NCBI GenBank assembly: GCA_017610205.1
Contig: JAFCCL010000007.1
Coordinates: 1 to 64,000, forward strand
From: Candidatus Iainarchaeum sp.
GTDB lineage: Archaea > Iainarchaeota > Iainarchaeia > Iainarchaeales > GCA-2688035
Direction: 5' to 3'
DNA length: 64,000 bases
In this document: positions 5,303 to 38,204 of the stretch, piece after piece
How the letters are laid out: every line of letters begins with the position of its first letter
How positions within the stretch are numbered: the stretch's first letter is position 1
Made by a program: the position numbers and the translations under genes
The notes under the pieces: model-generated
Told to the model about the DNA's origin: nothing
What the model saw: only the letters and a program-made list of their open reading frames with translations
The model's database searches: none

Positions 5303-5336
5303 TTGCTTTTGCAATTTACTTGGAGGGAAGGACAGG

Positions 5337-8898: not shown

Positions 8899-9323
8899 GC
8901 TTGAAGGATTTGAACAGGTCTTTGTGGGTTTTTCATGTAAATTCAGGAAGCTGTAATGGTTGTGATATTGAAATTGTTGCAACTTTGACTCCCAGATATG
9001 ACATTGAAAGGTTTGGAATGAAGCTTGTTGGAACGCCAAGGCATGCTGATGTTTTGCTTGTTACAGGGCCTGTTACAAGAGATATGGAAAAAAAGCTCAG
9101 AAGGGTTTTTGACCAGACACCTGACCCAAAGGTGGTTATGGTTATAGGAAATTGTGGAAGCACAGGCGGTGTTTTTTACGAGTCATATAATCTTGTAGGG
9201 CCTGTTGACAGAATTATTCCGGTAGATGTATATGTTGCCGGCTGTCCGCCAAGGCCTGAGGCAATAATTGAGGGTGTTGTAAAGGTCTGGGCAAAGCTTG
9301 AGAAAAGAGGTGAAAAGAAATGA
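8895..9323 (+). CDS. mbhJ: Hydrogenase small subunit (NuoB-like)
   Basis: SCNGCDIE, PRHAD, GNC, GCPPRP. Confidence 0.95.
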   Translation: MSLKDLNRSLWVFHVNSGSCNGCDIEIVATLTPRYDIERFGMKLVGTPRHADVLLVTGPVTRDMEKKLRRVFDQTPDPKVVMVIGNCGSTGGVFYESYNLVGPVDRIIPVDVYVAGCPPRPEAIIEGVVKVWAKLEKRGEKK

Positions 9324-11208: not shown

Positions 11209-12203
11209 TTGAAGCTTTGCAGGCAATAGCATTGATTCCTGTTGTTGCAATTGTTGGAATTTTTATTAGTCTTTTGTTCAAGGGAATTGACAGAATTTTG
11301 GCGGCAAGAATGCAGGCAAGAATTGGACCGCCTTTAAGCCAGCCTTTTATTGATGTAAAAAAGCTTTTTATGAAAGAAAATATTGTTCCAAAAAATTCTG
11401 TTAAATGGCTTTTTGAAATTATGCCAATTGTTTCTTTAACAGCATCGCTTGTGGTCCTGCTTTATGTGCCATTGTTTGGATTTAAGCCATTGCTTGATGG
11501 CTATGGTGATTTAATTCTGGTAATTTATCTTTTTGCAATACCTTCACTTGCAATGGTTTTAGGAGGCTTTGCCTCATCTTCAAGATATGCAACAATAGGT
11601 GCGCAAAGGGAAATGGTTACAATGCTAAGCTACGAGTTTCCCTTGGCAATTTCAATTATTGCAATTGCATGGGTTATTTCAAAAACAGGGACGTGCATTC
11701 CTGCTTTTTCGCTTGGTACAATTTTTACAATTCCAGTATGGGGCCTTGTTGGACCAATTGGATTTTTGGGATTGGTTCTTTTGTCGCTGGTAATGTTATT
11801 TGTGATGCCTGGAGAAATTGGTACAGTTCCATTTGATGCGCCTGAAGCTGAAACAGAAATTGGAGGCGGGGTTTTAACAGAGTACAGTGGCAGAAATCTT
11901 GCTCTTTTTTATATTTCGTCTTCGGTAAAAACAATTGCGTTTGCAGCGCTTATTGTTGCATTGATTATACCGTGGAATATTTCAAACATATTATTGCTTG
12001 GTGGAACAGGGGCAATTGTGGCAGACGCTTTGTTTTTCCTGGCAAAATTGTTTATTGTTGTGTTCGTTGGCTCAACTTTTGTAAGAGTTGCAATAGCAAG
12101 ATTTAGAATAACACAAATTGTAAAAATTTACTGGGGATATGCAAGCCTTGCAGCTCTCTTTGGGCTTTTGCTTATTGCAATTGACTTAAGTTGGATGGTG
12201 TGA
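11205..12203 (+). CDS. mbhM: Mbh subunit M (NuoH-like)
   Basis: DRILAARMQARIGPP..PFDAPEAETE..TEYSG. Confidence 0.93.
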   Translation: MIEALQAIALIPVVAIVGIFISLLFKGIDRILAARMQARIGPPLSQPFIDVKKLFMKENIVPKNSVKWLFEIMPIVSLTASLVVLLYVPLFGFKPLLDGYGDLILVIYLFAIPSLAMVLGGFASSSRYATIGAQREMVTMLSYEFPLAISIIAIAWVISKTGTCIPAFSLGTIFTIPVWGLVGPIGFLGLVLLSLVMLFVMPGEIGTVPFDAPEAETEIGGGVLTEYSGRNLALFYISSSVKTIAFAALIVALIIPWNISNILLLGGTGAIVADALFFLAKLFIVVFVGSTFVRVAIARFRITQIVKIYWGYASLAALFGLLLIAIDLSWMV

Positions 12204-12254
12204 AAATGTTTGGCGGCAAAATGGTTTTGAAGAAATTGAATGGAGGTGCATGAA

Positions 12255-12632
12255 ATGTTTGAAATGGCAAAAGAATTATTGAAACAGTTGTTCAGAAAGC
12301 CTTTTACTAACAGGTTTCCGTCAAAGCATGTGCCAAAGTCAACCACAAAGCTTTTGAAAAATGTTAAGGAAGGAATGGCAAAAGTAAACCGACCTGTTCC
12401 AATTCCCGAAGGGTTTAGGGGAAAAATTGCTTATGATAAAGAAAAATGCATTGGCTGCAAGCTCTGCATAAAAGTATGTCCTGCAAACTGCTATGATTTT
12501 CTTGAAAAAGAACGCAAGGTAAAATACCATTTGTCAAGATGCACTTTTTGTGCACAGTGTGTTGATGTCTGCCCAGTAAATGCTTTGACTTCAACAAAGG
12601 AATTTCTTTTATCAGATTACAAAACGCATTAA
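12255..12632 (+). CDS. mbhN: Mbh subunit N, 2[4Fe-4S] (NuoI-like)
   Basis: CIGCKLCIKVCP and CTFCAQCVDVCP; ATG 12255 follows SD ggaggtg. Confidence 0.93.
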   Translation: MFEMAKELLKQLFRKPFTNRFPSKHVPKSTTKLLKNVKEGMAKVNRPVPIPEGFRGKIAYDKEKCIGCKLCIKVCPANCYDFLEKERKVKYHLSRCTFCAQCVDVCPVNALTSTKEFLLSDYKTH

Positions 12633-13084
12633 TTGTCAAAAACTTCAATCTCATCCCAGGCTTCTCTTGAAATTATTTCAAGAAGTTTTTTCTTTGCTAT
12701 TTCAACTTGAGGCGATAAAGATTCAACAAGCATTATTTTGCCTGGTTGGACTCCGATAAAAATAATTTTTTCAGCGCTTTTTTCAAGCCTTTCAACAAGA
12801 TGCCTTAAAGGCATTCCGTGTGTTCCGACAACTGCGGAATTAAGCATTTCTTTTTGCAAAAGCCTGAATTTTCCTGCGGCAAGACCCATGACTGCAGCAT
12901 CAACTATTACAAGAAGTTTTGGTTTTTCCTTTTCAACAACACCTGCAAAGTTTTCAGGAACTGTTTCGCAAGGAAGAGAAAGCCAGCTCTCTTTTTTGGT
13001 TTTCTGAAAATCCGATGCGATTTTTGTGCCAATGCCATCATCGCCCTGCAGCTCGCTCCCAATTCCCATTAAGATTTTTTCCAA
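12629..13084 (-). CDS. hycI: Hydrogenase maturation endopeptidase
   Basis: GIGSELQGDDGIG, ETVPEN, IVDAA, THGMPL. Confidence 0.9.
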   Translation of the reverse strand: MEKILMGIGSELQGDDGIGTKIASDFQKTKKESWLSLPCETVPENFAGVVEKEKPKLLVIVDAAVMGLAAGKFRLLQKEMLNSAVVGTHGMPLRHLVERLEKSAEKIIFIGVQPGKIMLVESLSPQVEIAKKKLLEIISREAWDEIEVFDN

Positions 13085-13107
13085 AAATATTCACCTGACC
13101 AAACATT

Positions 13108-13485
13108 TCATTTAAATTCCAATGCAAATATCAGAACTTCGTTTCCTTTGGCAATTTCAAAATCATGGCTTTTGCATTTTGGACAATGCATTTCAAAAGT
13201 TCCAAGATGAGCCATTTCGTGTGTTACATTGAAATCCGAAACCTTGCCGGAAAAGCCGCATTTGCAGTTTATTTCAGGACAAATTTCTTTCACTTTAATT
13301 TTTGTCTTCAAATCAGGACCAAATTCTTTTTTGAGCATTTCTTCAAGCCAAAATTTGACATTGTCAGCCTGAATATTTTTTAATGCACCTATTCCAACCT
13401 CAAGCTTTATCTCCTTTGGCTTTTTGCCTTTGGCTTCTTTAACAACTGCGTCTAAAATTCCTTGAATTACTGCAATATCATGCAT
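13108..13485 (-). CDS. hypA: Hydrogenase nickel metallochaperone
   Basis: MHD start, LEVGIG, CKC and CPKC Zn ligands, GNE. Confidence 0.88.
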   Translation of the reverse strand: MHDIAVIQGILDAVVKEAKGKKPKEIKLEVGIGALKNIQADNVKFWLEEMLKKEFGPDLKTKIKVKEICPEINCKCGFSGKVSDFNVTHEMAHLGTFEMHCPKCKSHDFEIAKGNEVLIFALEFK

Positions 13486-27743: not shown

Positions 27744-28517
27744 ATGAACAAAATTGAATTAAAAAATGTTGGAAAAAGGATTGCGGTAGTTAGTGGAAAG
27801 GGAGGCACAGGAAAAAGCACTTTTTCCACTTTGCTTGCTTTGAGTTTGGCAGCCAAAGGAGAAAGAGTTGGCTTGCTTGATATTGATGTGCATGGCCCAA
27901 ACATCCCTCTAATGCTTGGGATTGAGGGAAAAAACATGGGTGTTGACAGCAACAAAAGGCTACTGCCTGTTAAGGCCGAGCCAAACCTAAAAGTCGTTTC
28001 CACCAGCTTTATGCTTAAAAAAGACCAAGCACTTATTTGGAGAGGGCCACTAAAATCAAACCTTATAAAACAGGCAGTGGAGCAGACTGACTGGGGCAGC
28101 CTGGATTTTCTCATTGTTGACAATCCCCCAGGAACAGGTGATGAAACAATTACCCTGACCCAATTAATTGATTTGAACGGAGCAATAATTGTGGGAACGC
28201 CGCAAACAGCGTCAGTATACGATGTAAGAAAAGCAGTAAACATGATGAAAACCGTCAATGTCCAGGTTTTAGGATTAGTGGAGAACATGAGTTATTGCAT
28301 TTGCCCGCATTGCAAAGAAAAAATTGACTTGTTTGGAAAAGGCAGAATAAAACAGCTGGCAAAAGAGGAAAAAGTGCCCTTTTTGGGTGAAATTCCCATA
28401 GACATTAAACTAAGGGAAATGGCTGACAAAGGTGGCATCAAGCTAAACAACCTTAACCCGAAAATAAAGAAAACTATCAATGACATAATCAAAAACATAG
28501 GCAACAAAAGCTTTTGA
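27744..28517 (+). CDS. Mrp/NBP35 (ApbC) Fe-S carrier ATPase
   Basis: SGKGGTGKS, DVHGP, WRGP, DNPPGTGD, ENMS..CPHC. Confidence 0.93.
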   Translation: MNKIELKNVGKRIAVVSGKGGTGKSTFSTLLALSLAAKGERVGLLDIDVHGPNIPLMLGIEGKNMGVDSNKRLLPVKAEPNLKVVSTSFMLKKDQALIWRGPLKSNLIKQAVEQTDWGSLDFLIVDNPPGTGDETITLTQLIDLNGAIIVGTPQTASVYDVRKAVNMMKTVNVQVLGLVENMSYCICPHCKEKIDLFGKGRIKQLAKEEKVPFLGEIPIDIKLREMADKGGIKLNNLNPKIKKTINDIIKNIGNKSF

Positions 28518-28556
28518 ATGGAAAAGAGACCAGCCAAGAGTATAAATCAAATAAAC

Positions 28557-28576
28557 ACATAAACAAACGTTTATAT
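28557..28576. promoter_or_regulatory. Putative ArsR/SmtB operator
   Basis: Imperfect inverted repeat acataaac-aaac-gtttatat just upstream of the ArsR gene. Confidence 0.5.
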
Positions 28577-28608
28577 GGTTTTTGTTTCATAATTATTATT
28601 AGTTGCAA

Positions 28609-28986
28609 ATGATTAACCCAAAGGACTCACAAACCGCAATGGCTTTCGCAAGAGTATTTGCCACATTGTCAGACCCGAACAGGTTGCTGATACTGAAAAC
28701 GCTTGGAGACAAGGAAAAGTCAGTAAACCAGCTTGCGATTGAATTAAACCTTTCACAGCCACTGGTTTCACACCACTTGGCTGCGCTTAAAGCAAACGGC
28801 CTGGTGAAAGCAAAAAAAGCAGGCAGCTTTGTATTTTACAACACGGCAACAAAAAAAATCGCTGAGTTGGTTAATAGCTTGGAGAACACTTTGGAAGACA
28901 TAGCAAAAAACATGGAATTAACACCTTTTCCCCAGCCACTTTTTCCTTTCAGAAGAAGAGGCAGAAGGGGAAGAGGGTGGATGTAA
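28609..28986 (+). CDS. ArsR/SmtB transcriptional regulator
   Basis: LSDPNRL, SQPLVSHHL..L..GLV; start could be 28603. Confidence 0.9.
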   Translation: MINPKDSQTAMAFARVFATLSDPNRLLILKTLGDKEKSVNQLAIELNLSQPLVSHHLAALKANGLVKAKKAGSFVFYNTATKKIAELVNSLENTLEDIAKNMELTPFPQPLFPFRRRGRRGRGWM

Positions 28987-29005
28987 AAAAGGAGGTGAGA
29001 TAAAT

Positions 29006-29416
29006 ATGCCATTTGGAGATAGAACAGGACCAAACGGACTTGGCCCAATGACAGGTAGAGGAGCAGGCTACTGCGCCGGCTATTCAACGCCTGGATATGC
29101 CAACCCTGTTGGGAGCAGAGGCTTCTATGGTAGAGGTGCCGGCTTTGGAAGAGGTGGCGGCAGGGGCTTTGGACGCGGCTTTGGAAGAGACAACAGGCAG
29201 CGCTTTTACGCAACAGGCGTGCCAAGTAGGGTATACGGAACTTATGACCCTTATGCAGTGCCTTACGCAGCGCCTTACAACTCTGCTCAAGCACCAGCAC
29301 AGCCTTCAGAAGCTGAACTGCGCAGACAGGAAAAGGAAGCCCTGGGACAAGAAGCAAGTGCCTTGGAGCAAGAGCTTGCCGAGATAAAGAAAAGACTTGT
29401 CGAATTAGGCAAGTGA
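29006..29416 (+). CDS. DUF5320-family Gly/Arg-rich protein
   Basis: MPFGDRTGP.GLGPMTGRGAGYC; RGG repeats; C-terminal coiled coil. Confidence 0.88.
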   Translation: MPFGDRTGPNGLGPMTGRGAGYCAGYSTPGYANPVGSRGFYGRGAGFGRGGGRGFGRGFGRDNRQRFYATGVPSRVYGTYDPYAVPYAAPYNSAQAPAQPSEAELRRQEKEALGQEASALEQELAEIKKRLVELGK

Positions 29417-29635: not shown

Positions 29636-30043
29636 TTGTCTGACCTTGATGTAGAAAGAATCAAAGCAGAAAAATTAAGGAAAATGCAGGAGCAAATGCA
29701 TCAAAACGAGGTGAAAAAAGTGGAGATTGAAGTAAACGACGAAAATTTTCAAAAAGAAGTAATTGACAAAAGCAGAAATGTTCCGGTTGTGGTTGACTTT
29801 TGGGCAACTTGGTGCGCACCCTGCCTTACTCTTAGTCCGACCCTTGAAAAGCTTGCAAAAAAATTCAATGGAAAGTTTGTGCTGGCAAAAGCAAACGTTG
29901 ACGAAAGCAAGGCCGCAAGCACAAAATATGCCATCTCATGCATTCCTGCAGTGAAAATGTTTAAGAATGGAAAGGTAACAAACGAATTCATCGGAGCTTT
30001 GCCAGAAGCAGCGGTTGAACAGTGGCTTCGCAAAAACATCTGA
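29636..30043 (+). CDS. trxA: Thioredoxin
   Basis: VDFWATWCAPC, IP, FKNG; N-terminal helix SDLDVERIKAEKL. Confidence 0.9.
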   Translation: MSDLDVERIKAEKLRKMQEQMHQNEVKKVEIEVNDENFQKEVIDKSRNVPVVVDFWATWCAPCLTLSPTLEKLAKKFNGKFVLAKANVDESKAASTKYAISCIPAVKMFKNGKVTNEFIGALPEAAVEQWLRKNI

Positions 30044-30055
30044 AGGCAGTTAAAA

Positions 30056-30865
30056 ATGAAGATAAAAAAAATAACTATTTTTCCCGGCCGCAGCAAGCAA
30101 GGCGAAAAAGAATCCTTTGAAAAAATCGAGATATTAGCCGGGCAAAAAATAGGAATTGTCGGTCCAACAGGCTCGGGGAAAAGCCAATTGTTATATGACA
30201 TTGAAAAGCTTAGCCGAGGAGAAACAAAGACCCTAAGAAAGATTTTGATAAACGATAACAAAGTGCAGAAAGGCCTTAGAACAGACCCGGCAAGAAAAAT
30301 AATTGGCTATTTAACCCAGCATATGAATTTTATGACAGACACAACAGTCCAAAATTTTTTGGAAACCCATATAATGACAAGAGGCCGGCACAGGTCAGAG
30401 GAAAGCACCAAAGAGCTGGTTGAAAAGATAATAGAGTCCGCAAACACCATAACAGGCGAGGAAATCAACAAGAATACGAATTTACTTATTTTGTCAGGCG
30501 GGCAGTCAAGAGCTTTAATGGTTGCAGACCTTGCATATATCAGTGAGTCCCCAATTATCCTGATAGATGAAATAGAAAACGCTGGCATAAGAATCAGTGA
30601 AGCCCTTGACCTGTTAATCAAAAAGGGAAAAATAATCTTCTTGGTAACACACAACCCGATTCTTGCTTTGGATACTGACAAAAGGATGGTCATGAAAAAC
30701 GGGGCAATAAGCAACATTATTTATACCTCAGTTAAGGAAAGAGGAATTGCAAACTATCTTTCATGGATTGATAACTACATGTTAGATGTTAGAGAAGAGG
30801 TAAGAATGGGGAAAAAAGTGGAAGAACTGCGGCTGATATGTACGCCAATGGGGGTAAAAAGATGA
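30056..30865 (+). CDS. Stand-alone ABC-type ATPase (no permease nearby)
   Basis: GPTGSGKS, LSGGQSRALM, ILIDEIENAG, VTH. Confidence 0.88.
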   Translation: MKIKKITIFPGRSKQGEKESFEKIEILAGQKIGIVGPTGSGKSQLLYDIEKLSRGETKTLRKILINDNKVQKGLRTDPARKIIGYLTQHMNFMTDTTVQNFLETHIMTRGRHRSEESTKELVEKIIESANTITGEEINKNTNLLILSGGQSRALMVADLAYISESPIILIDEIENAGIRISEALDLLIKKGKIIFLVTHNPILALDTDKRMVMKNGAISNIIYTSVKERGIANYLSWIDNYMLDVREEVRMGKKVEELRLICTPMGVKR

Positions 30866-31653
30866 AAATAGCAATTTTTGGCGGAACACCAGGAAGCGGA
30901 AAAACAAGTGTAATCAAATTTGTAATGCAGGAACTGAAAGACTTAAGCATTCATTATGCAAAATTTGATGTTGTATCCACAGAAGACCACCTGCTAATAA
31001 AAAACAAGTTTGGGATAAACACTGAAAAGAAAATATCTGGAGAAATATGCCCAGACCATTACGCTGCACTTGAAATCCCAAAAATCGTTGAAAAGCACAA
31101 AAACAAAGATCTAATTATAATAGAAACAGCTGGGCTTTGCCTAAGGTGCTCGCCATATATAAACGAAGGACTTGCAATCAACATCCTGAACATTTTGGCA
31201 GGAAAGCCTTCAAGTTATGGTCCACTGCTAACACACGCTGACCTAGTGGCTACAACCAAGGGCGACCTGATTTCACAGGCAGAAAGGGAAATCTTCAGGT
31301 CGGAAGTTCTGAAAGTTGCCAAAAATGCTTCAATAATTGAAGCAAACGGCCTAACAGGCGAAGGTGCGATTGACATAGCAGAGGCAGTGAAAGAAAGCCC
31401 TGAAATAAAAGGAAAACTTACCTTGAAGCATTCCATGCCAACCGCTGTTTGCGGATACTGCTATGGAAACAAAACAATTGATTCAGAGGAAACATTGAAG
31501 CGTTACTCACTTGGCAAGGAACTGAAAGCAAGGATTCCAAACCTGAACTGCGGAAAATGCGGATTCAAATCATGCAATGAATTCATAAGAGCGGTTTTGG
31601 ATAAAAAAGTGAATGAAGATACGTGCCCTTACTTGAAAGGCAAGAAGGGATAG
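30862..31653 (+). CDS. HypB/UreG-like (G3E) Cys-rich GTPase fused to a putative Fe-S domain
   Basis: GTPGSGKT, CPDH, ETAGLCLRC, TKGD, CGYC; C-terminal NCGKCGFKSC..CP. Confidence 0.82.
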   Translation: MKIAIFGGTPGSGKTSVIKFVMQELKDLSIHYAKFDVVSTEDHLLIKNKFGINTEKKISGEICPDHYAALEIPKIVEKHKNKDLIIIETAGLCLRCSPYINEGLAINILNILAGKPSSYGPLLTHADLVATTKGDLISQAEREIFRSEVLKVAKNASIIEANGLTGEGAIDIAEAVKESPEIKGKLTLKHSMPTAVCGYCYGNKTIDSEETLKRYSLGKELKARIPNLNCGKCGFKSCNEFIRAVLDKKVNEDTCPYLKGKKG

Positions 31654-31655
31654 AA

Positions 31656-32000
31656 ATGAAAAAAGGGCTTAAAAAAGAACTTGATAATGCAATAGACACA
31701 TCGGGTACTGAATTAAAATGGGTTCCAGACCCAAAGGGATATTTTACAATAAAACCCATTTTCTCACAAAAAAAAGTTTTTGTAAGACATTATAACTCAA
31801 AAGATGTTTTAGAACAAACCTTTGCAGGAACAATCACACCAGAAATAGTTCAGGCAATTATCCAAAGAAAACTAATCTCAAGATTAGACCATGCTGCCTA
31901 TCTTGGAAAGGAAACAGAAAAAGCAATAATCGCATTAAAAAACAAACTAGAGTATGTTCAAGGCAACAAATTGCACTTAGAAAGTAAAATAAGGGATTAA
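31656..32000 (+). CDS. DUF4346-like protein
   Basis: DPKGYF.I..HY..G..ISRLDHAAYLGKE.EKA..AL..YVQ. Confidence 0.8.
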   Translation: MKKGLKKELDNAIDTSGTELKWVPDPKGYFTIKPIFSQKKVFVRHYNSKDVLEQTFAGTITPEIVQAIIQRKLISRLDHAAYLGKETEKAIIALKNKLEYVQGNKLHLESKIRD

Positions 32001-32057
32001 TTGAAACGTTTCAAACCTGAAAATTTTATGGACTGGAGATAAATTGGAGTTGGTAAA

Positions 32058-32411
32058 ATGCCATGGGTAGACAAAGAAAAATGCACAGGCTGCACTATTT
32101 GTGTGAAAAACTGCCCGGTAGAAGCTATTAGTATGGAAAATGGAAACGCCGAAATAGATATGGATAAATGCATAAGATGCGGCAAATGCCATGAAGTATG
32201 TCCTCAAGAAGCAGTCAGGCATGACAGCGAGAAAATTCCACAAGAAATTGAAGAAAATATTGAATGGGCAAAAAGACTAATGAAACACTACAAAACAAAA
32301 AAAGAAAAGAAGGAATTTCTGAAAAGAATGGTTAAACATTTTAACAAAGAAAAAAAGGTTGCGGAAGAAAGCCTTAACAAGATTAAAGAAATCGAGGCTG
32401 ACAAAAAATGA
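32058..32411 (+). CDS. 2[4Fe-4S] ferredoxin with a helical C-terminal extension
   Basis: CTGCTICVKNCP and CIRCGKCHEVCP. Confidence 0.9.
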   Translation: MPWVDKEKCTGCTICVKNCPVEAISMENGNAEIDMDKCIRCGKCHEVCPQEAVRHDSEKIPQEIEENIEWAKRLMKHYKTKKEKKEFLKRMVKHFNKEKKVAEESLNKIKEIEADKK

Positions 32412-32992
32412 ACAAAGAAATGAGAAACTGGGAAGGAAAAGAAGGAATCAGATTCCTAAAGAGAATTGGAATTAAGCCAGGCCAGAAAGTCTTGGATTTT
32501 GGGGCGAGAGTCGGACACTATTCGATTCCGGCGGCAGTGGTTGTTGGAAACCGCGGAAAAGTTTACGCCTTGGATAAAAACAAAGACCCTTTAAACGAAT
32601 TAAAAAGAAAGGCTACAGAACAAAAACTGGAAAACATAATCTTGGTCAAAACCAATGGCAGGTTGAAAACCGAGCTGGAAAATAACTCTGTTGACGCTGC
32701 ACTTGCTTATGACGTATTGCACTTGATAGACGACAGAAAAAAGTTGTACATGGAAATCAACCGAGTTCTTCAAAAGAATGGCCTGTTTTCAGTATATCCA
32801 AAACACAACAAATTAGACCAACCAGAACAAAGCTTGAAAAATCTGGGACCAAAAGACATTGTGAAAGAAATAGAAGCCCACAACTTTTATTTTGAAAAAA
32901 AGCATTGTGGGCTTATAAGCCATGATGATTTTTTCAACAAAGGATGCGTTTTGAATTTCAGGAAAAAGAGAACTCCTAGAGGCAAGAAATAA
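32408..32992 (+). CDS. Class I SAM-dependent methyltransferase
   Basis: VLDFGARVGHY, VYALD, SVD..YDVLH. Confidence 0.85.
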   Translation: MNKEMRNWEGKEGIRFLKRIGIKPGQKVLDFGARVGHYSIPAAVVVGNRGKVYALDKNKDPLNELKRKATEQKLENIILVKTNGRLKTELENNSVDAALAYDVLHLIDDRKKLYMEINRVLQKNGLFSVYPKHNKLDQPEQSLKNLGPKDIVKEIEAHNFYFEKKHCGLISHDDFFNKGCVLNFRKKRTPRGKK

Positions 32993-33198
32993 TGAAAAAA
33001 ACAATAAACGGCTGGTTGTTTAACAGAATAGAAAAGCTTGGAAACAAGGAATTTAACCATATTGGATGCGAAGGCGAAAACAGCTCTTTTGGAGACTTTC
33101 TTGCCTCGTTTGTGCCAAAAATAGGAACAAGAAGGAAAGCAAGGTTTACAATAGAAACGCTTGACAATTCTGAAAAAAAGGCGAGGAATAAGCACTAA
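32992..33198 (+). CDS. Small hypothetical protein
   Basis: 68 aa; TAATG-coupled within the operon. Confidence 0.6.
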   Translation: MKKTINGWLFNRIEKLGNKEFNHIGCEGENSSFGDFLASFVPKIGTRRKARFTIETLDNSEKKARNKH

Positions 33199-33218
33199 AA
33201 AGGAGGCAGTGATGGAAA

Positions 33219-33395
33219 ATGGTTAAAATAAACAAAAAGTTATGCGCTGGATGCGGAAACTGTGTGGAAGCATGCCCTTTTGAAGTATTAAAAATTAAAG
33301 ATGGAAAAGCAGTGGTTGTAGATTCGGAAAAATGCCAAAAATGCGGGGCCTGCATGTCAATCTGCCCAAACAACGCAATCAAAATTGAGGAATGA
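33219..33395 (+). CDS. 2[4Fe-4S] ferredoxin, 58 aa (absent from the ORF track)
   Basis: Read manually: MVKINKKLCAGCGNCVEACPFE...CQKCGACMSICPNNAIKIEE. Confidence 0.92.
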   Translation: MVKINKKLCAGCGNCVEACPFEVLKIKDGKAVVVDSEKCQKCGACMSICPNNAIKIEE

Positions 33396-33396
33396 T

Positions 33397-33663
33397 ATGA
33401 ACAGAAAAATCAAAAAACTTATCAAAGAATTTGAGGGATATGCAAAAGAAAACGGCTTTAGGCTAAATCCTGATTCAAAAATAGCGAAAGAAACGATAAG
33501 AGGGCTGCTTGAAAACGAGAAAAAGCATGGACAAAGGTACTGTCCCTGCAGAAGAGTAACAGGAAATAAGGAGGAAGACAAAAAAATAATCTGCCCCTGC
33601 ATTTATCACGAAAAAGAAATCAAAACACAGGGCCACTGCCTTTGCCAGTTGTTTTTCAAGTGA
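33397..33663 (+). CDS. Ferredoxin-thioredoxin reductase catalytic subunit
   Basis: YCPCR, ICPC, HCLC.LF. Confidence 0.92.
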   Translation: MNRKIKKLIKEFEGYAKENGFRLNPDSKIAKETIRGLLENEKKHGQRYCPCRRVTGNKEEDKKIICPCIYHEKEIKTQGHCLCQLFFK

Positions 33664-33669
33664 TTCAAA

Positions 33670-33987
33670 ATGCAGCTGCTTGTTTTTGTTTCATCACATT
33701 GCCCACACTGTCCAAAAGCAGTAACAGCCGTAAAAGAAGCTGTTTCCCAATACAGTGACTACAATTTGAGTTACAGAAAAATAAGGGCAAAAACAGCGGA
33801 AGCAAAACAAATTTCGGGCAAATATGGCATAAGGGCATACCCCACAATAATAGGCCTAAACGACCGTGAGGAAACAGTATGCAAAATTATTGGAGTGCCA
33901 AGCGAAGAAAAACTTAGGAAAGAAATTGAAAAAGCCCTTGGCCTGAGAAAATCGCTTTTCAGAAAAATTTTTGGCGGCAGGACATGA
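33670..33987 (+). CDS. Thioredoxin/glutaredoxin-like protein
   Basis: CPHC, YGIRAYPT, GVP. Confidence 0.85.
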   Translation: MQLLVFVSSHCPHCPKAVTAVKEAVSQYSDYNLSYRKIRAKTAEAKQISGKYGIRAYPTIIGLNDREETVCKIIGVPSEEKLRKEIEKALGLRKSLFRKIFGGRT

Positions 33988-34382
33988 ACCCAAACGATTT
34001 TTTAAACAAGGGAAACAAAATTGCAGTAGTGGGCGTTTCAGCCAATCAGAAAAAATGGGGCTTTAAAATATATGAAGAGCTAAAGTCTTCTGGCTTTCGC
34101 GTTTACCCAATAAACCCAAAACAAAAAATAATAGGGCAGGATGTCTGTTACCCAAATTTGGAAGCCTTGGCAGAAATCCCTGATGTTGTAATAACAGTTG
34201 TTCCCCCAAAGGTTACGGAACAAGTTGTAAAGCAGTGCAGAAAACTTGGCATAAAAAGAGTTTGGATGCAACCAGGCTCTGAATCAGAAAAAGCAATAAA
34301 GTTTTGCAAACACAATAATATTGAAATAATGCATGATGCTTGTTTTATTGTTAATGGTTTAAAAATGGGGGAAAAAAGATGA
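33984..34382 (+). CDS. CoA-binding protein (YccU-like)
   Basis: IAVVGVS, VYPINP, VWMQPG. Confidence 0.9.
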   Translation: MNPNDFLNKGNKIAVVGVSANQKKWGFKIYEELKSSGFRVYPINPKQKIIGQDVCYPNLEALAEIPDVVITVVPPKVTEQVVKQCRKLGIKRVWMQPGSESEKAIKFCKHNNIEIMHDACFIVNGLKMGEKR

Positions 34383-34723
34383 TAACTTTTGCATGCAAAA
34401 AAATAAGGCTGGATGAAATTGTCAGATGTTCATTTAGTTTGAACAAGACAGAATACAATGCGCTAATGTTTTTGCTTAAAAAAGAAAAAGAATTTGATAT
34501 TTACACTCTTTCTAAAAAAATGGGTTTAGAGAGGACAACCTTGCAAAAGGCACTAAAAAAGCTTTTAGACAAAAAGCTGGCAAAAAGAAGGCAGGTAAAT
34601 ATAGAAACAGGCGGCTATTTTTTTCTATACAATGTAAAAAACAAAGGCTCAATAAAGATGCGGCTTTTGGAGATAATTAGGCAATGGGAAAAAACCGCTG
34701 AAGAGGAAATACAAACCCTATAA
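34379..34723 (+). CDS. TrmB/MarR-like winged-HTH regulator with N-terminal cysteines
   Basis: FACKK..RCSFSLNKTEY, ERTTLQKAL..L, GGY. Confidence 0.8.
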   Translation: MITFACKKIRLDEIVRCSFSLNKTEYNALMFLLKKEKEFDIYTLSKKMGLERTTLQKALKKLLDKKLAKRRQVNIETGGYFFLYNVKNKGSIKMRLLEIIRQWEKTAEEEIQTL

Positions 34724-34740: not shown

Positions 34741-34783
34741 AAACCTATTTAAATTGTTTGACATGCATTTGAATTGGTTTAAG

Positions 34784-35617
34784 ATGAAACAAATTGCAAT
34801 TACAGGTGGCAAGGGAGGGACAGGAAAAAGCACTGTTGCAACAGCTATTGCTGTAGAGCTTGGGAAAAGGCATAAAGTGCTTTTAGTTGACGCAGATGTT
34901 GACTGCCCCAATGACCACCTGCTGCTTGGAATTGAGAGAACGAAAGTCAGGACAGTATACCAAAGAATTCCAACGTGGGATTTTGAAAAATGCACCAAAT
35001 GCGGCAAGTGTGCAGAGACCTGCAAGGTCAATTCCATTTTTGGCCCAAAAGGAAAACAGCCCATTTTTTTACCACAGCAATGCAATGGTTGTGGCGCATG
35101 CGTTATAACCTGCCCTGCAAATGCAATAAGCTGGAGTGAAAAGGAAATCGGCGAAATTTTTAGGGGAAACGGCCATGGCATTGGTTTTATTTCAGGCGAG
35201 TTAAAGGTAAATGAAGCTGTTTCCGAATTTGTTGTCAATGCGTTAAAAGAGGAAGTTAAAAAAATTGGGAAAGGATACGATTTTATTTTGTTTGACACAG
35301 CAGCTGGAACCCATTGTGATGTGATTTCTGCTTTGGAAGGAAGCAGCATTGCTTTGGCTGTTACAGAGCCAACTCCGCTTGGAGAGCATGACCTTGAATT
35401 GATTATGAAGCTGTTGAAAAGGCTTGGCATAAAATTTGAAATTGTTTTGAACAGGTTTGAAGAAGGCATGGAAAAGCTGATTGAAAAAGTTGCTGAAAGC
35501 AACGGAAAAAAGATTGCGTCAAAAATACCCTACAGCAAAAAAATAATGGAAAACTACAGCAAAGGCATTCCAGTAAAACATGAAAGCATTGAAAAGATTG
35601 CGGAGCTGGTTGAATGA
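34784..35617 (+). CDS. MinD-like P-loop ATPase with inserted 2[4Fe-4S] domain (COG1149)
   Basis: GGKGGTGKS, DADVDCPN, two CxxCxxC..CP-type motifs, DTAAG, VTEPT. Confidence 0.9.
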   Translation: MKQIAITGGKGGTGKSTVATAIAVELGKRHKVLLVDADVDCPNDHLLLGIERTKVRTVYQRIPTWDFEKCTKCGKCAETCKVNSIFGPKGKQPIFLPQQCNGCGACVITCPANAISWSEKEIGEIFRGNGHGIGFISGELKVNEAVSEFVVNALKEEVKKIGKGYDFILFDTAAGTHCDVISALEGSSIALAVTEPTPLGEHDLELIMKLLKRLGIKFEIVLNRFEEGMEKLIEKVAESNGKKIASKIPYSKKIMENYSKGIPVKHESIEKIAELVE

Positions 35618-36495
35618 AAAAAATAACAGTTTTAAGCGGAAAAGGTGGTGTTGGAAAAAGCAGTATTGCCGGTTCGCTTGCAGTTCTTTTGGCAAAAAAG
35701 CATGAAGTTATCTGTGCCGACTGTGATGTTGACGCCTCAAACCTTGGGCTTGTTCTGGGATTAAAGGAAAAGGATTTTGAGGAATGGGAAAGAATTTCAA
35801 CAAACGAAAAGGCTGTTTTGGACGAAAAGAAGTGCAATGGCTGCAAAAAATGCGTTGAAAGCTGTTACTTTAAGGCAATCAAATGGAACAAGGAAAAAAA
35901 ACAGCCTGTTTTTGACAGCCTTATATGTGAAGGATGCGGCGCATGTGAAATAGTTTGCCCTGAAAACGCAATAATTCTTGAAAAAGTGCAAAATGCAAAA
36001 ATTGGATTTGGGAAAACAAAATACGGTTTTGGCATTGTTTCAGGACAGCTTGAAATGGGCGAATCTGGTTCTGGAAAGGTAGTGGCAGAAGTAAGAAAGC
36101 TTGCAGAAAAAAAAGGCAAGGGAGCGGAAATTATGGTTATTGATGCTGCAGCAGGAATAGGATGCCCTGTAATTGCCTCAGTTGTTGGAAGCGACTTTGT
36201 CATAGGGGTTACTGAACCAACGCCGTCAGGACTCTCAGACTTGAAGAGGGCTTTGCAGATGACAGAGCATTTTGGAATTGGTTGCGGGATTGTGATAAAT
36301 AAGCACGACCTTAATCCAAAATTTACAAAAAGGATTGAGGCATTTGCAAAAGAAAATGGTTTGGAAGTTCTTGCAAAAATTCCTTATGAAAAGGCATTTG
36401 TTGAGGCATTAATTAACCTTGTGCCAATAATTGAATTCAAATCAGAAACGAAAAAGTTTTTTGAAGAAATAATTGGCAAGCTTCCTAAGGATTAA
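35614..36495 (+). CDS. MinD-like P-loop ATPase with inserted 2[4Fe-4S] domain (COG1149), second paralog
   Basis: SGKGGVGKS, DCDVDA, CNGCKKC, CEGCGAC..CP, GIGCPV, VTEPT. Confidence 0.9.
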   Translation: MKKITVLSGKGGVGKSSIAGSLAVLLAKKHEVICADCDVDASNLGLVLGLKEKDFEEWERISTNEKAVLDEKKCNGCKKCVESCYFKAIKWNKEKKQPVFDSLICEGCGACEIVCPENAIILEKVQNAKIGFGKTKYGFGIVSGQLEMGESGSGKVVAEVRKLAEKKGKGAEIMVIDAAAGIGCPVIASVVGSDFVIGVTEPTPSGLSDLKRALQMTEHFGIGCGIVINKHDLNPKFTKRIEAFAKENGLEVLAKIPYEKAFVEALINLVPIIEFKSETKKFFEEIIGKLPKD

Positions 36496-36555: not shown

Positions 36556-37392
36556 ATGAAAAAAATGCTTTTACTTGCATTAATTGCGTTTCTTTTCATG
36601 GCTTCAAGCGTAAGCGCTGAAACAGTATGTGGAGTCTATTTTACAAAAATTGGATGCCCTGTATGCTCAAAAGTAGACCCTGTTATTTTGGATCAATGGA
36701 TTTCAAGCAGGGATGATGCAGTGGTAATAGAATATGTTATGGACTCATGGTATGAACCACATGCAATCCTGATGGGAGAATACAATTTGGCACACGGGAC
36801 AGGCAGCTCTGTTCCATTAATGATAAAGAATGCTAATGAAACATGGGCAGGAATTCCTGCATTTTACACAAACGACAACATTTTTCAGCATGCTGAAGAA
36901 TTCTTTAAAGATGACGAAGGAAAATGCCTGCTTGTTGAAGGGGAAATTTCCTTTGAAGAAATTAATTTGAATGAATTGCCTGAAAAACCAAAGCTTTGGG
37001 CAGGCAAAAGGCTTTTGGTCAGGACAGGCGTTGCTGAAATTGAAAGCGATTTCCTAAAAGAGCTTTTGTTTAAAGAGGATTTGGTAGCAGTGCTTGCAGG
37101 CACGCAGTATGAGTTGAAGGAAGTAAAGGCAGAGCCAGCTCCCTACTCAGGCGGAGAAATTCCCTTTGCACAAGCGATTGACATTGGAGATGGATGGGTT
37201 TTAAAGCTAAAGGAAGCAATTGAATTGCCTGAAAATGTTGAGCAACTGCAAAATGGAGGCAATGGCGGGAATGGAAATGGCAATGAAGGTAATGGAAATG
37301 CTGTAGAAGCAAACCCGTTTGTTTTTCCTGCAATAGCAATGATTGTCTGTATTATTGCATTAATTATTTTCATTAAGGTGAAAAAGAAATGA
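36556..37392 (+). CDS. Exported, membrane-anchored thioredoxin-fold protein
   Basis: Signal peptide, GCPVC, SVP, Gly/Asn linker, C-terminal TM helix. Confidence 0.75.
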   Translation: MKKMLLLALIAFLFMASSVSAETVCGVYFTKIGCPVCSKVDPVILDQWISSRDDAVVIEYVMDSWYEPHAILMGEYNLAHGTGSSVPLMIKNANETWAGIPAFYTNDNIFQHAEEFFKDDEGKCLLVEGEISFEEINLNELPEKPKLWAGKRLLVRTGVAEIESDFLKELLFKEDLVAVLAGTQYELKEVKAEPAPYSGGEIPFAQAIDIGDGWVLKLKEAIELPENVEQLQNGGNGGNGNGNEGNGNAVEANPFVFPAIAMIVCIIALIIFIKVKKK

Positions 37393-38204
37393 CTGACTTG
37401 ACTATTCCGGCAATTGTTTCCCTTGCATTGGTTGACTCTATAAACCCATGTGCAATCGCTGTTTTGTCCCTTTTGATTATTGCATACATGACACACAATC
37501 CACATGAGAAAAAAAAAGCCTTGCTTGCAGGATTTTTCTTCATCTCAGCTGTTTACATTGTTTACCTTATTTATGCCATTGTTCTTGTTGAAACAATAGG
37601 CACCTTTATAGAAGTCATTTCCGGCTCGGAACTGTTTATTTACGGCGGCTTCAGCCTTGTTGCAATAGCATTAGGTGTTTTCAACATAAAGGACTTTTTC
37701 TGGTACAAACCAGGCGGTCTCTTGAGGGAAATGCCAGTGAAATGGAGGCCTGCAGTTCAAAAACTGTTAAGTGGAATTGAAAGCCCTAAAGGCGGCTTTA
37801 TTCTCGGAATTTTTGTAACAATTTTCCTCTTGCCATGTACAATTGGGCCATTGCTAATGGCCTGCACTTTGCTTGCAAAATACGGCTCGCTTTTCGCATT
37901 GCCATGGCTTTTGCTTTATAATTTAATCTTTGTTCTGCCAATGCTTGTAATTGTAATAGCAATTTACATTGGCTTGACAATGGTTGAAAGCGTAACAGAA
38001 TGGAAAGACAAGAACATCAAATACCTGCATTTGGTTGCCGGAATTATAATGGCAGCTATTGGATTATACCTTGCATGGGATGCAGAAAATGCATTTCACA
38101 TAATGCTTGGGCCAATTGACTTGAACTTTTTCACAATTGGAATAATTGAAATCCCTGTGCTGCTTGCAATAATTCTGTTCAGGCACAAAGCAAAGAAAGA
38201 ATAG
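37389..38204 (+). CDS. CcdA/DsbD-like transmembrane electron transporter
   Basis: DSINPCA and LPCT.GP membrane Cys pair; multiple TM helices. Confidence 0.82.
   Translation: MTDLTIPAIVSLALVDSINPCAIAVLSLLIIAYMTHNPHEKKKALLAGFFFISAVYIVYLIYAIVLVETIGTFIEVISGSELFIYGGFSLVAIALGVFNIKDFFWYKPGGLLREMPVKWRPAVQKLLSGIESPKGGFILGIFVTIFLLPCTIGPLLMACTLLAKYGSLFALPWLLLYNLIFVLPMLVIVIAIYIGLTMVESVTEWKDKNIKYLHLVAGIIMAAIGLYLAWDAENAFHIMLGPIDLNFFTIGIIEIPVLLAIILFRHKAKKE

Follow-up and report, generated by a model that had tools for sequence, protein, structure and literature searches.

The window analyzed here, a stretch of 64,000 nucleotides of contig JAFCCL010000007.1 from a Candidatus Iainarchaeum genome, contains a run of co-oriented genes in which two nucleotide-hydrolyzing proteins are surrounded by ferredoxin, thioredoxin, and other redox genes (Table 1). 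All 12 open reading frames of the original prediction, from the first thioredoxin to the HTH protein, were found where it had placed them, and profile searches with Pfam and NCBIfam upheld their family assignments. Taken as longest ORFs, neighboring genes are 6 to 57 nt apart or overlap by 1 to 31 nt. The end of the run, previously set at position 34,723, was not borne out; genes go on to approximately 39,335, including two MinD-ferredoxin ATPases. The GTPase most likely starts later than listed, at the ATG at 30,862, which overlaps the ABC stop codon as ATGA, has GGGGGT upstream, and coincides with the point at which homologs begin. The start of the DUF4346 gene is most likely the ATG at 31,656, 2 nt past the GTPase stop. 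The 12-gene run is a mosaic of an ABC-GTPase core, a ferredoxin/FTR/thioredoxin chain, and an insert of DUF4346 and methyltransferase genes, with MinD-ferredoxin, NifX, DUF5320, and Mrp genes on its flanks.

Table 1. Genes of the run and its flanks, with positions in the window (core components as longest ORFs).
Feature	Position	Strand	Matches
Upstream flank: Mrp/NBP35-type Fe-S carrier ATPase, ArsR regulator, DUF5320	27744..29416	+	PF10609 302.6 bits, PF01022, PF17253
Thioredoxin, TrxA type, first gene of run	29636..30043	+	PF00085 2.9e-27; TIGR01068 99.8 bits vs cut-off 96.8
Permease-less ABC-type ATPase, core component 1	30056..30865	+	PF00005
G3E GTPase (HypB/UreG-like) with RnfB/CFeSP-type Fe-S domain, core component 2	30838..31653	+	PF02492, PF04060
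Stand-alone DUF4346 ('PterinBD') protein	31623..32000	+	PF14251 2.9e-19
2x[4Fe-4S] ferredoxin, C-terminal helical tail	32058..32411	+	Fer4 families
Class I SAM-dependent methyltransferase	32408..32992	+	PF08241, PF13847
68-aa conserved small protein	32992..33198	+	tblastn homologs; Pfam: none
58-aa 2x[4Fe-4S] ferredoxin	33219..33395	+	Fer4
Ferredoxin:thioredoxin reductase (FTR) catalytic-subunit homolog, CPC...CPC...HCLC	33385..33663	+	PF02943 82.8 bits
Small thioredoxin, MJ0307 type	33670..33987	+	PF00085, PF13192; TIGR00411 1.5e-13, below its cut-off
CoA-binding (CoA_binding_2) protein	33984..34382	+	PF13380 111.8 bits
Lrs14/TrmB-type winged-helix regulator, two N-terminal Cys	34379..34723	+	PF01978; NF040939 7e-13
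Two MinD/CbiA-type ATPases with inserted 2x[4Fe-4S] ferredoxin domains, run continuation	34754..36495	+	PF01656, Fer4

Walker A, Q-loop, LSGGQ, Walker B (including the catalytic Glu), and H-loop motifs are all present in the ABC protein, which also has a conserved C-terminal extension of approximately 50 aa (alignment A2, 23 sequences). Its D-loop is indeed atypical, with IENAG in place of the SALD type, and the N and G are invariant in all 23 sequences. The ABC gene lies immediately 5' of the GTPase gene in 75 of 80 related loci. At the other five, no more than 330 nt of contig is available upstream, such that the adjacency holds in all 75 testable loci, and these span two domains of life. 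Natural fusions of the GTPase and the ABC ATPase exist on separate contigs (P0126, 613 aa, in an 11-member cluster; P0131, 509 aa, with five members), and the ABC half of P0131 shares 41% identity with the window protein and carries a DEVENAGI motif. These patterns strongly support a conserved unit composed of a permease-less ABC ATPase and a HypB/UreG-like GTPase that carries a fused RnfB-type Fe-S domain. The trio of ATPase, GTPase, and DUF4346 that had been proposed as the unit fails the neighborhood-conservation check, as DUF4346 adjoins the GTPase in only five of the 80 loci; it rides along in particular lineages, together with the methyltransferase.

Co-folding of the ABC ATPase with the GTPase gave a score of 0.61, compared with 0.00 for the best of three controls. 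Among solved complexes, 116 of 157 reach this mark, as do two of 215 mismatched pairs; these counts hold only roughly here because our own alignments were used. The runs share at least 81% of contacts, and the partner pLDDT is at least 76. The predicted interface involves ABC residues 84–94, 101–109, and 151–165 and GTPase residues 143–155 and 165–182, with the GTPase helix that follows the guanine-binding KGD motif (143–155) placed in the ABC Q-loop/helical-subdomain groove. Interface residues are, however, only weakly more conserved than the remainder in both the GTPase (mean identity 0.84 vs. 0.75, p = 0.045) and the ABC protein (0.78 vs. 0.68, p = 0.058). Together with the adjacency and the fusions, the models strongly support binding of the soluble ABC ATPase to the HypB/UreG-type GTPase, with the two-gene cassette as the predicted functional unit.

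Transporters seat the coupling helix of the membrane domain on the corresponding ABC surface. In SufC, the Q-loop and helices a2/a3 are contacted by SufD, according to the available part of PMC6006206. In the prediction, the GTPase is thus docked in the groove that SufC uses for SufD/SufB and that transporters use for their membrane domains, and would therefore replace the permease. This placement also bears on the possibility that the protein is an ordinary transporter ATPase with its permease gene at another locus, and that the neighboring GTPase is unrelated to it. Every catalytic motif of transporter nucleotide-binding domains (NBDs) is present, and transporter NBDs are the best sequence matches. 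However, such a role is hard to reconcile with the invariant adjacency, the fusions, and the predicted filling of the coupling-helix groove by the GTPase. As noted originally, the run itself has no permease, and the pair has no conserved membrane-protein neighbor; the commonest such family is a CDF exporter (15 of 78 loci). A multi-pass protein found in seven loci brings its own second ABC gene, and the genome has only one other ABC match at E <= 1e-5. Given this evidence, we consider the transporter assignment the least probable of those weighed here. The predicted grip on a soluble partner through the Q-loop and helical region, and the location among Fe-S and redox genes, are both reminiscent of SufBC2D and SmsCB (SufC-SufD contacts as described in part of PMC6006206). 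The partner differs in being a G3E GTPase rather than a SufB/SufD beta-helix protein.

The CPDH, CLRC, CGYC, and CxxCxxxxC...C motifs that had been recognized in the GTPase are invariant in all 15 aligned homologs. Its putative ligands are C71-P-D-H74, C101, C104, C205, C208, and C238/C241/C246/C263. Across 20 sequences with identity down to 28%, C71, C101, C104, and C205 never vary, and conservation at H74 and C208 is 90% or higher. The PF04060 domain matches the N-termini of CFeSP and RnfB. In the AF2 model, pLDDT falls below 50 at residues 102–111 and 197–214, which are exactly the Cys loops. HypB and UreG structures are the top Foldseek hits (2wsm, 4hi0, and 2hf8; TM-score 0.70–0.73 on target), and the sequence match to HypB 2wsm has an E-value of 1.5e-10. 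The resemblance includes the fold, the P-loop, the KxD guanine motif, and a Cys...His pair at the interfacial metal site; the aligned counterparts of CPDH in HypB and UreG are a C-H and a CPH motif, respectively. A second Cys also follows the Walker B strand, and GLCxRC aligns with the second Cys of HypB. In contrast to HypB and UreG, the cassette GTPase has three extra invariant Cys and the fused PF04060 domain, and its obligate partner is the ABC ATPase rather than HypA or UreE/F/D.

This similarity raises the question of whether the protein stands in for HypB, inserting nickel into the organism's own [NiFe] hydrogenases together with HypA. The window encodes an Mbh-type hydrogenase (approximately 4500–12632), a HycI protease, and HypA (13108–13485), and a second hydrogenase is found on another contig (C19). 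Moreover, the cassette GTPase is the only G3E-type match at E <= 0.001 in this 92%-complete genome, and its CPDH falls on the nickel-binding motif of HypB. Nevertheless, the reading as a HypB-like nickel inserter failed when tested. [NiFe] large subunits were found in only 12 of 50 cassette-bearing genomes, and although these MAGs are incomplete, 38 misses are too many. The score against the hypB model TIGR00073 is far below its cut-off (38.2 vs. 121.2 bits), and hyp or hydrogenase genes never adjoin the cassette in 80 loci. An Mrp/MinD-type ATPase could instead act as HypB, as in Thermococcales. Nickel insertion is accordingly very unlikely, if slightly less so than transport.

The redox genes are frequent partners of the cassette. 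A ferredoxin cluster is present in 56 of 78 related loci (median offset +876 nt from the GTPase start). The 58-aa ferredoxin of the run is the ortholog of the one most often found 3' of the GTPase elsewhere, and homologs of the longer ferredoxin occur in a subset of loci. In 36 of 78 loci, a thioredoxin gene directly precedes the one for the ABC ATPase, and FTR, which is single-copy in this genome, was found in 30 of 78 loci and 27 of 50 cassette-bearing genomes. On paper, FTR, two thioredoxins, and ferredoxins provide the full ferredoxin-to-thiol chain of the ferredoxin:thioredoxin (disulfide) reductase systems of anaerobes. In comparison with those systems, the chain is an optional companion here and leaves the two NTPases unexplained. 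Given the frequencies of FTR and [NiFe] hydrogenase among carriers, neither can be an obligatory client.

In the 68-aa protein, the His of an NHxGCEG motif is invariant and the Cys nearly so; the protein has no match to a Pfam family. It is linked to the GTPase: tblastn matches were found in 13 of 80 loci, the gene is directly 3' of the GTPase in six (L015, L037, L044, L049, L072, and L073), and in L021 it shares a single reading frame with the GTPase-FeS protein as a fusion. DUF4346 and the methyltransferase are a separate, lineage-specific insert outside the conserved core. DUF4346 is present in six of 80 loci, and in the one where it does not adjoin the GTPase it is 4 kb away. Both genes occur together in the window, L001, L002, L004, L006, and L019, and both are missing from L005. 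The AF2 model of DUF4346 (pLDDT 87) has no clear match among solved folds, and the methyltransferase has weak ArsM/UbiE-like matches with NCBIfam scores far below cut-offs. Other neighbors give the cassette a metal and Fe-S setting; they include MinD-ferredoxin ATPases (21 of 78 loci), Mrp/NBP35, NifX-like proteins, a regulator of the CsoR family, the CDF exporter, and DUF134/DUF5320. The flanks of the run hold what we take to be the gene kinds of an ORP ('orange protein') type cluster, namely MinD-type ferredoxin ATPases, NifX-like and Mrp/NBP35 proteins, and DUF134/DUF5320 relatives. The likeness to the ORP-type cluster of anaerobes with MrpORP, as far as it is described in the available part of PMC6345978, is limited to these flanks and does not extend to the ABC-GTPase core.

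The cassette has a patchy distribution, being found in eight of 201 sampled genomes of its own phylum and six of 20 of its own family. It occurs in archaea and bacteria with very small cells, namely DPANN archaea, Patescibacteria, and Dependentiae. Of 50 carriers, 48 keep a scaffold of the SufB or IscU type, such that a general Fe-S role is not needed from the cassette, which does not replace SUF/ISC biogenesis. A search of the window's own genome found no SufB/D match; IscS-IscU is present.

Distant relatives of the cassette occur in coenzyme M (sulfonate) operons in all three Methanomassiliicoccaceae loci, a setting that points to sulfur chemistry over metal delivery. Methanogen genes for an 'ATPase / Ni2+-binding GTPase / COG2000 Fe-S protein' next to those of coenzyme M biosynthesis are mentioned in a 2025 paper, with their role stated as unknown in the available part (PMC12068725). 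The combination thus still lacks a characterized function, as originally claimed, but is not entirely undescribed. The ABC proteins are homologous (45–49% identity by tblastn to L077–L079), as are the GTPases (36–42% identity, with the same invariant Cys/His set), and a PF04060 module is present. In the cassette, however, this module is fused to the GTPase and the COG2000 protein's second domain is absent, the neighbors are ferredoxin, FTR, and thioredoxin rather than sulfonate enzymes, and the hosts are the lineages named above.

These relatives suggest a different possibility, that the cassette encodes not a chaperone but a redox enzyme of sulfur metabolism powered by NTP hydrolysis. Ferredoxin would supply electrons, via the PF04060 cluster, to a catalytic site rich in Cys, where ATP and GTP hydrolysis would drive an uphill sulfur conversion, for example the production or reduction of sulfite, persulfide, or sulfide. 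Thioredoxin and FTR would service thiol products or ligands, and by analogy the logic would resemble that of other ATP-driven low-potential electron-transfer systems. In the three Methanomassiliicoccaceae loci, the ABC, GTPase, and separate PF04060 genes lie between genes for a cysteate-synthase-like PLP enzyme and ComD/ComE, with an HcyBio sulfur-insertion gene opposite. A two-Cys CsoR-family regulator is upstream of the cassette in 11 of 78 loci, and thioredoxin and FTR often adjoin it. Furthermore, the colocalization with coenzyme M genes is presented as unexplained (PMC12068725, available part), and a soluble ABC ATPase belongs to the ATP-driven reductive MCR activation complex (PMC12176620, available part). 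On the other hand, the DPANN/CPR form lacks the second COG2000 domain, which the 68-aa protein does not resemble (hhalign probability 0.4%), and no sulfonate or sulfur-assimilation gene was found in the window. The GTPase-only subfamily adjoins metal-chelate uptake and metal-binding families (80 loci: cytoplasmic DUF1858+SBP_bac_6 in 33, DUF364 'heavy-metal chelation' in 17, Peripla_BP_2 in 13, and FecCD in 10). To our knowledge, all characterized G3E GTPases are metal or cofactor chaperones and none are redox enzymes, which also counts against this explanation. A sulfur-metabolic enzyme is therefore somewhat unlikely, although far less so than a nickel inserter or a transporter subunit.

An ATP/GTP-driven, ferredoxin-fed metal/Fe-S system, as originally predicted, is still the best reading. 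Its unit had been drawn wrongly by including DUF4346, but the general idea gains support because the ABC ATPase and GTPase are always adjacent, are naturally fused, and pass the co-folding test. Tentatively, with a probability of about 0.4, we regard the cassette as a two-NTPase machine for the assembly, delivery, or repair of a specialized metal/Fe-S centre in anaerobes. The two proteins may form a 2:2 assembly, in which the ABC dimer would close and open at the expense of ATP and thereby force two GTPase protomers toward and away from each other. A metal or Fe-S-type centre may be held at the GTPase dimer interface by the HypB ligand positions (Cys71/His74 and Cys101/104) and three further invariant Cys. 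The fused RnfB/CFeSP-type [4Fe-4S] domain would draw electrons from the adjacent 2x[4Fe-4S] ferredoxin, such that the centre could be built, reduced, or released. In about half of the carriers, co-encoded FTR and thioredoxins may keep ligand or client cysteines reduced. For the organisms that carry it, the cassette would have an accessory and environment-dependent role rather than a housekeeping one.

Profile searches of each open reading frame against Pfam and NCBIfam mostly agree with the families that the original prediction had guessed for the 12 genes of the run. These genes (see table) overlap or are separated by gaps of 6–57 nt. Judging from homologues and the DNA, the GTPase gene most likely starts at the ATG at 30862, in an ATGA overlap with the stop codon of the ABC gene, and the DUF4346 gene most likely starts at the ATG at 31656, 2 nt past the GTPase stop. 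The ferredoxin-thioredoxin reductase (FTR) homologue matches PF02943 (82.8 bits; cut-off 22) and its translation has the CPC, CPC, and HCLC cysteine pattern of the putative reductase. The DUF4346 protein matches PF14251 (70.1 bits; cut-off 29.6), and pterin binding is implied only by the Pfam name. A Foldseek search of its fold against the PDB gave no match at E ≤ 0.001, and the best Z score of 6.4 in a wide VIA-align search is in the noise range, with no clear solved fold; no literature on "DUF4346" or "PterinBD" was found.

Features of the window with the coordinates and strands reported for them
Feature	Position	Strand
MazF/PemK-type toxin gene	480–839	
Desulfoferrodoxin and rubrerythrin pair	1010–1992	minus
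Mbh/Mrp-type membrane-bound [NiFe] hydrogenase cluster with HycI and HypA	4500–13485	
HycI protease	12629–13084	minus
HypA	13108–13485	minus
Run of 12 co-oriented genes	29636–34723	
TrxA-type thioredoxin, run member		
ABC-type ATPase, run member	30056–30865	
CobW/HypB/UreG-family GTPase with C-terminal PF04060 "FeS" domain, run member	30838–31653	
Stand-alone DUF4346 protein (current name "PterinBD-DUF4346"), run member		
Two 2x[4Fe-4S] ferredoxins, run members		
Class I SAM methyltransferase, run member		
68-aa open reading frame without a family, run member		
FTR catalytic-subunit homologue, run member		
MJ0307-type thioredoxin, run member		
CoA_binding_2 protein, run member		
Lrs14/TrmB-type regulator, run member		
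CxxC protein followed by multi-pass membrane protein	36556–38204	

The run extends past 34723 into two MinD-type ATPases with ferredoxin inserts. Beyond these lie a CxxC protein, secreted or anchored and with the motif at its N-terminus, a multi-pass membrane protein that has Pro-Cys twice, and a DNA methylase. The multi-pass protein has a weak SfLAP match (30.1 bits, under the cut-off of 35), and we take its pairing with the CxxC protein to resemble a transmembrane thiol relay of the CcdA/DsbD type. Both accompany the run in related loci L002 and L012; seven others (L004–L006, L020, L036, L069, and L073) have just the membrane protein. The upstream flank includes genes for DUF5320, ArsR, an Mrp/NBP35 ATPase, a pyridine-nucleotide disulfide reductase, NifX-like proteins, and a CDF exporter. 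The window also contains a MazF/PemK-type toxin gene and a desulfoferrodoxin–rubrerythrin pair, an oxygen-stress set in a window that is otherwise of anaerobe type. The source genome has 1.37 Mb and is 92% complete.

The GTPase belongs to a large and highly conserved family: the search returned 4725 matches, the best 120 of which are 63–100% identical to the window protein. PF02492 and PF04060 occur together in 119 of these best 120 of 4725, a few of which also carry PF07693; P0115, among the same 120, is a truncated 245-aa protein with PF04060 only. With one genome scanned for each species, 80 loci were recovered, hosted by DPANN archaea, Patescibacteria/CPR, Dependentiae/TM6, and Babeliales, together with a few genomes labelled Methanosarcinales and three distant Methanomassiliicoccaceae. 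The window proteins were mapped onto these loci, and all open reading frames within 5 kb of the GTPase (itself found in 78 loci) were clustered. The ABC gene is directly upstream of the GTPase gene in 75 of the 80 loci; the other five (L021, L026, L035, L075, and L076) have at most 330 nt of contig upstream of the GTPase. The adjacency is invariant across two domains of life (75/75 loci with upstream DNA). The counts for other neighbours are lower bounds, since many loci end at contig edges: small ferredoxin 56/78, thioredoxin just upstream 36/78, FTR 30/78, MinD-ferredoxin ATPases 21/78, NifX-like genes 17/78, DUF134 and a CDF exporter 15/78 each, DUF5320 13/78, and a two-Cys CsoR-family regulator 11/78.

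The unit first proposed, a trio of ABC ATPase, GTPase, and DUF4346 protein, does not hold up in this comparison, with DUF4346 beside the GTPase in 5/80 loci. These are the five closest loci (L001–L004 and L006; 84–90% identical). In L019, the DUF4346 gene lies 4 kb from the GTPase, directly after the methyltransferase gene and before a TrmO-like gene, and L005 has neither DUF4346 nor the methyltransferase. Because its adjacency is confined to the closest loci, and given the L019 arrangement and the joint absence in L005, DUF4346 is best seen as a methyltransferase-linked rider. The two genes occur together in six loci (31656–32992 in the window; adjacent at L019:3044–4412) and may form a separate small methyl-transfer module. 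TrmO-like genes are located just upstream of the thioredoxin gene in L001, L003, L004, and L005. A SLAC1/TehA-type anion channel gene, which the window lacks, directly follows the GTPase or DUF4346 gene at L001:9811–10806 and in the same place in L005, L010, and L014, and is also present at L009:6861–7853. The 68-aa protein has matches in 13/80 loci, directly after the GTPase in six. It is linked to the ABC–GTPase cassette: in L021:43–936, the 68-aa family forms the C-terminus of one open frame that begins with the GTPase and continues into its PF04060 Fe-S domain, a natural fusion that ties the small protein to the cassette. The original prediction is right in its details and wrong in its unit.

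The ABC protein matches PF00005 (55.9 bits; cut-off 25) and has Walker A, the Q-loop, the LSGGQ signature, Walker B with the catalytic Glu, and the H-loop. In an alignment of 23 ABC sequences, GxTGxGK, Q88, LSGGQ, ILIDE, and TH199 are invariant or nearly so. An atypical D-loop had been noticed from the sequence, and the alignment bears this out: the SALD-type motif is missing and is replaced by IENAG, in which N175 and G177 are invariant and I173, E174, and A176 are at least 90% conserved. The ATPase had also been described as permease-less, and no permease is present in the run and no membrane family is conserved beside the pair in the 78 loci. A search of the ESM Atlas with the ABC protein returned generic "ABC" clusters only. 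SufC of the SUF scaffold pairs with SufB/SufD; in contrast, the partner here is the GTPase, and no PF01458 match to SufB or SufD was found in the 92%-complete source genome.

The GTPase matches PF02492 over residues 12–167 (35.4 bits; cut-off 20.7). Its Walker A (GTPGSGKTS) and guanine motif ([ST]KGD) are conserved, with G16–S24, K141, G142, and D143 invariant in 15/15 sequences. By sequence it is closest to HypB/UreG (2wsm at 1.5e-10), and the top Foldseek matches of its AF2 model (2wsm at 2e-9, 4hi0, 4lps, 2hf8, and 5xkt) indicate a HypB/UreG-like fold. The model has a mean pLDDT of 74.6, with a confident G domain and poor Cys loops at residues 102–111 and 197–214. In profile alignments, CPDH aligns to the interfacial metal motif of HypB (C-H) and UreG (CPH), marking a putative metal site, and GLCxRC aligns to the second HypB ligand. 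Among 20 family members, with identities down to 28% and forms without the Fe-S domain included, C71, P72, C101, C104, and C205 are invariant and D73, H74, and C208 are at least 90% conserved. For the PF04060 tail, matches were obtained to the N-terminal [4Fe-4S] regions of RnfB and of the large subunit of the corrinoid/Fe-S protein (CFeSP). The literature searches found nothing relevant tying PF04060 to PF02492.

Natural fusions also join the GTPase and the ABC protein. In a profile search across 1.84 billion representatives, two turned up on separate contigs, namely P0126 (613 aa; cluster of 11) and P0131 (509 aa; cluster of 5). Over 255 residues, the window ABC protein shares 41% identity with the ABC half of P0131, which includes a DEVENAGI motif. 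The co-folding check suggested alongside the original prediction gave a positive result for the ABC protein with the GTPase at 1:1: the score is 0.61 (runs 0.64, 0.61, and 0.61), and the best control scored 0.00. This mark is reached by 116/157 solved complexes and 2/215 mismatched pairs, counts that hold only roughly here because the co-fold used custom alignments. The runs share at least 81% of contacts, the partner pLDDT is at least 76, and we know of no solved ABC–G3E complex that the model could have memorised. The prediction supports binding between the two proteins. The predicted interface involves the Q-loop segment 84–94, residues 101–109 of the helical subdomain, and residues 151–165 after the signature motif of the ABC protein, and residues 143–155 (directly past the KGD guanine motif and mostly invariant) and 165–182 of the GTPase. 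Interface residues are slightly more conserved than the rest, a weak enrichment (GTPase p 0.045; ABC p 0.058). Transporter nucleotide-binding domains hold the coupling helix at this ABC surface. SufC holds SufD via the same surface (PMC6006206). No description of an ABC–GTPase complex was found in the searchable literature.

The cassette was found in 8/201 sampled genomes of the window's phylum (E ≤ 1e-20), in 2/58 of the high-quality ones, and in 6/20 genomes of its own family, and it is not a core gene set in the phylum. Among 88 pattern matches on viral contigs, there was no relative of the cassette. A search of sequencing runs listed no RNA run and two DNA runs, the latter sharing a small fraction of words. 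Between DPANN and the Patescibacteria and Dependentiae, ultra-small archaea and bacteria respectively, the pair shares 60–95% identity. A quick maximum-likelihood tree was built from 71 locus GTPases and the window protein, leaving out 7 of 78 rows with lengths outside 240–300 aa. A single bacterial clade (SH-aLRT 89), in which 44 of the 45 rows are labelled Bacteria, contains all CPR/TM6 GTPases and adjoins a DPANN grade. The domain label changes 4 times on this tree compared with a shuffled mean of 19, which points to few inter-domain transfers. Two loci labelled Chloroflexi and Falkowbacteria (L002 and L003) nest in the archaeal clade and are 94–95% identical to and fully syntenic with the window; they are probably mis-binned contigs. 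In the searches made, which left bioRxiv supplements and subscription journals outside their scope, no printed description of the DPANN/CPR form of the cassette was found, and none of the papers listed for DPANN and CPR dealt with FTR.

A distant version occurs in the three Methanomassiliicoccaceae loci (L077–L079), where the adjacent ABC and GTPase genes are 45–49% and 36–42% identical (tblastn) to those of the window and the Cys/His set is shared. In all three, the cassette genes are flanked by ComD/ComE and by a PLP enzyme resembling cysteate synthase, with an HcyBio sulfur-insertion gene opposite; no such sulfonate/coenzyme M biosynthesis genes were found in the window. These loci carry PF04060 on a separate 208-aa protein (COG2000) with a second domain of no named family, whereas the window form has the PF04060 part only, fused to the GTPase, and lacks the second domain of about 170 aa. 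The 68-aa protein was considered as a stand-in for this second domain and is unrelated (hhalign probability 0.4%). The coenzyme M-operon relatives are listed with role unknown in a 2025 paper (PMC12068725).

A further subfamily has the GTPase without the Fe-S domain and was sampled in 80 metagenome loci, 72 of which contain the GTPase ORF. A homologous ABC gene of about 340 aa is directly downstream (its cluster occurs in 60 loci, unrelated ABC paralogues included), and this partner is 44% identical to the window ABC protein. Its N-terminal extension has no DUF1858 match at E ≤ 0.05. A signal-less, cytoplasmic DUF1858+SBP_bac_6 protein is encoded directly upstream in 33/80 loci. The pair is followed by DUF364/DUF4213 ("putative heavy-metal chelation") in 17/80 and by a Cys-rich protein of about 80 aa in 7/80, and Peripla_BP_2 and FecCD occur in 13/80 and 10/80, respectively. 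In seven gut/fermenter loci of this subfamily, panC-panD lies directly upstream.

These three subfamily contexts suggest one engine with three adaptor sets. They point to metals (iron-type binding/uptake), to sulfur (coenzyme M and sulfur insertion), and, for the window form, to ferredoxin/thiol redox. A metal–sulfur centre is their simplest common denominator, and the reading that ranks first is therefore a system acting on a metal or Fe-S centre. The functional guess of the original prediction was of this kind, and it remains the front-runner, with modest confidence. A serious rival is that the cassette is itself a sulfur enzyme, as the coenzyme M and sulfur-insertion genes around the methanogen relatives would suggest; the metal-binding and uptake genes around the GTPase-only forms, and the HypB/UreG-type metal motif, speak for the metal/Fe-S-centre reading.

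More specific roles were also considered. HypA, HycI, and an Mbh-type hydrogenase are encoded 17–26 kb upstream of the GTPase, no other G3E-type match was found in the 92%-complete genome, and a HypB-like role merited a test for these reasons. A canonical HypB was not found in that genome, and the GTPase scores 38.2 bits against the hypB model TIGR00073, under the cut-off of 121.2. Among 50 cassette-bearing genomes, which are incomplete MAGs, a PF00374 [NiFe] hydrogenase was found in 12/50, and a HypB surrogate is rejected as the general role; FTR was found in 27/50, and it is rejected as an obligatory partner. A substitute for general Fe-S biogenesis is likewise rejected, as SufB-type scaffolds occur in 21/50, IscU-type in 38/50, and either in 48/50; the only scaffold-free cassette genomes are two small MAGs (G023 and G031), and the source genome (92% complete) has IscS and IscU and no SufB/D match. 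These presence/absence tests indicate that the cassette is not a hydrogenase maturase, an FTR-specific factor, or a stand-in for general Fe-S biogenesis.

For the metal/Fe-S-centre reading, the following sequence of events may be envisaged. Extrapolating from the 1:1 model and family behaviour, an ABC dimer and a GTPase dimer would form a 2:2 complex. ATP binding would close the ABC dimer, and the docked helices would alter the GTPase dimer interface, where Cys71/His74, Cys101/104, and Cys205/208 may hold a metal or Fe-S-type centre, by homology to HypB. PF04060-type domains carry electrons in CFeSP and RnfB, and ferredoxin electrons could similarly reach the interfacial centre through the PF04060 cluster. 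By analogy to HypB and UreG, GTP hydrolysis would then release or transfer the centre, and thioredoxin reduced by FTR, as gene linkage hints, may keep client or ligand thiols reduced. Precedents for soluble ABC ATPases are SufBC2D (PMC6006206) and the complex that activates MCR at the expense of ATP (PMC12176620).

A bolder and rather unlikely possibility is a dual-NTPase redox machine of a new class. The GTPase dimer would replace a membrane domain as the "transmission" partner of the ABC dimer, ferredoxin electrons would pass via the RnfB-type cluster to the interfacial Cys/His site, and ATP and GTP hydrolysis would drive uphill sulfur/metal-centre chemistry. One candidate reaction would be a sulfite/sulfur-delivery step, as hinted by the coenzyme M-operon relatives, with a reduced, thioredoxin-wired version in DPANN/CPR.

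Taken together, the cassette is a real, conserved two-NTPase unit with a predicted function. Metal-centre maturation is already known separately for G3E GTPases and for soluble ABC ATPases, and a complex combining them is not known to have been described. In the model, the site at which the ABC ATPase of a transporter holds the membrane domain appears to be taken by a metallochaperone GTPase, and this GTPase brings a putative built-in Fe-S domain for electron entry. Because two or three small soluble proteins suffice, co-expression offers a direct test of the cassette. Many anaerobes carry relatives of the pair, and others lie within the coenzyme M operons of methanogens. Once known, the job of the cassette would close a gap in what is understood of metal/sulfur cofactors in anaerobes and would represent a new mechanistic use of the ABC fold.
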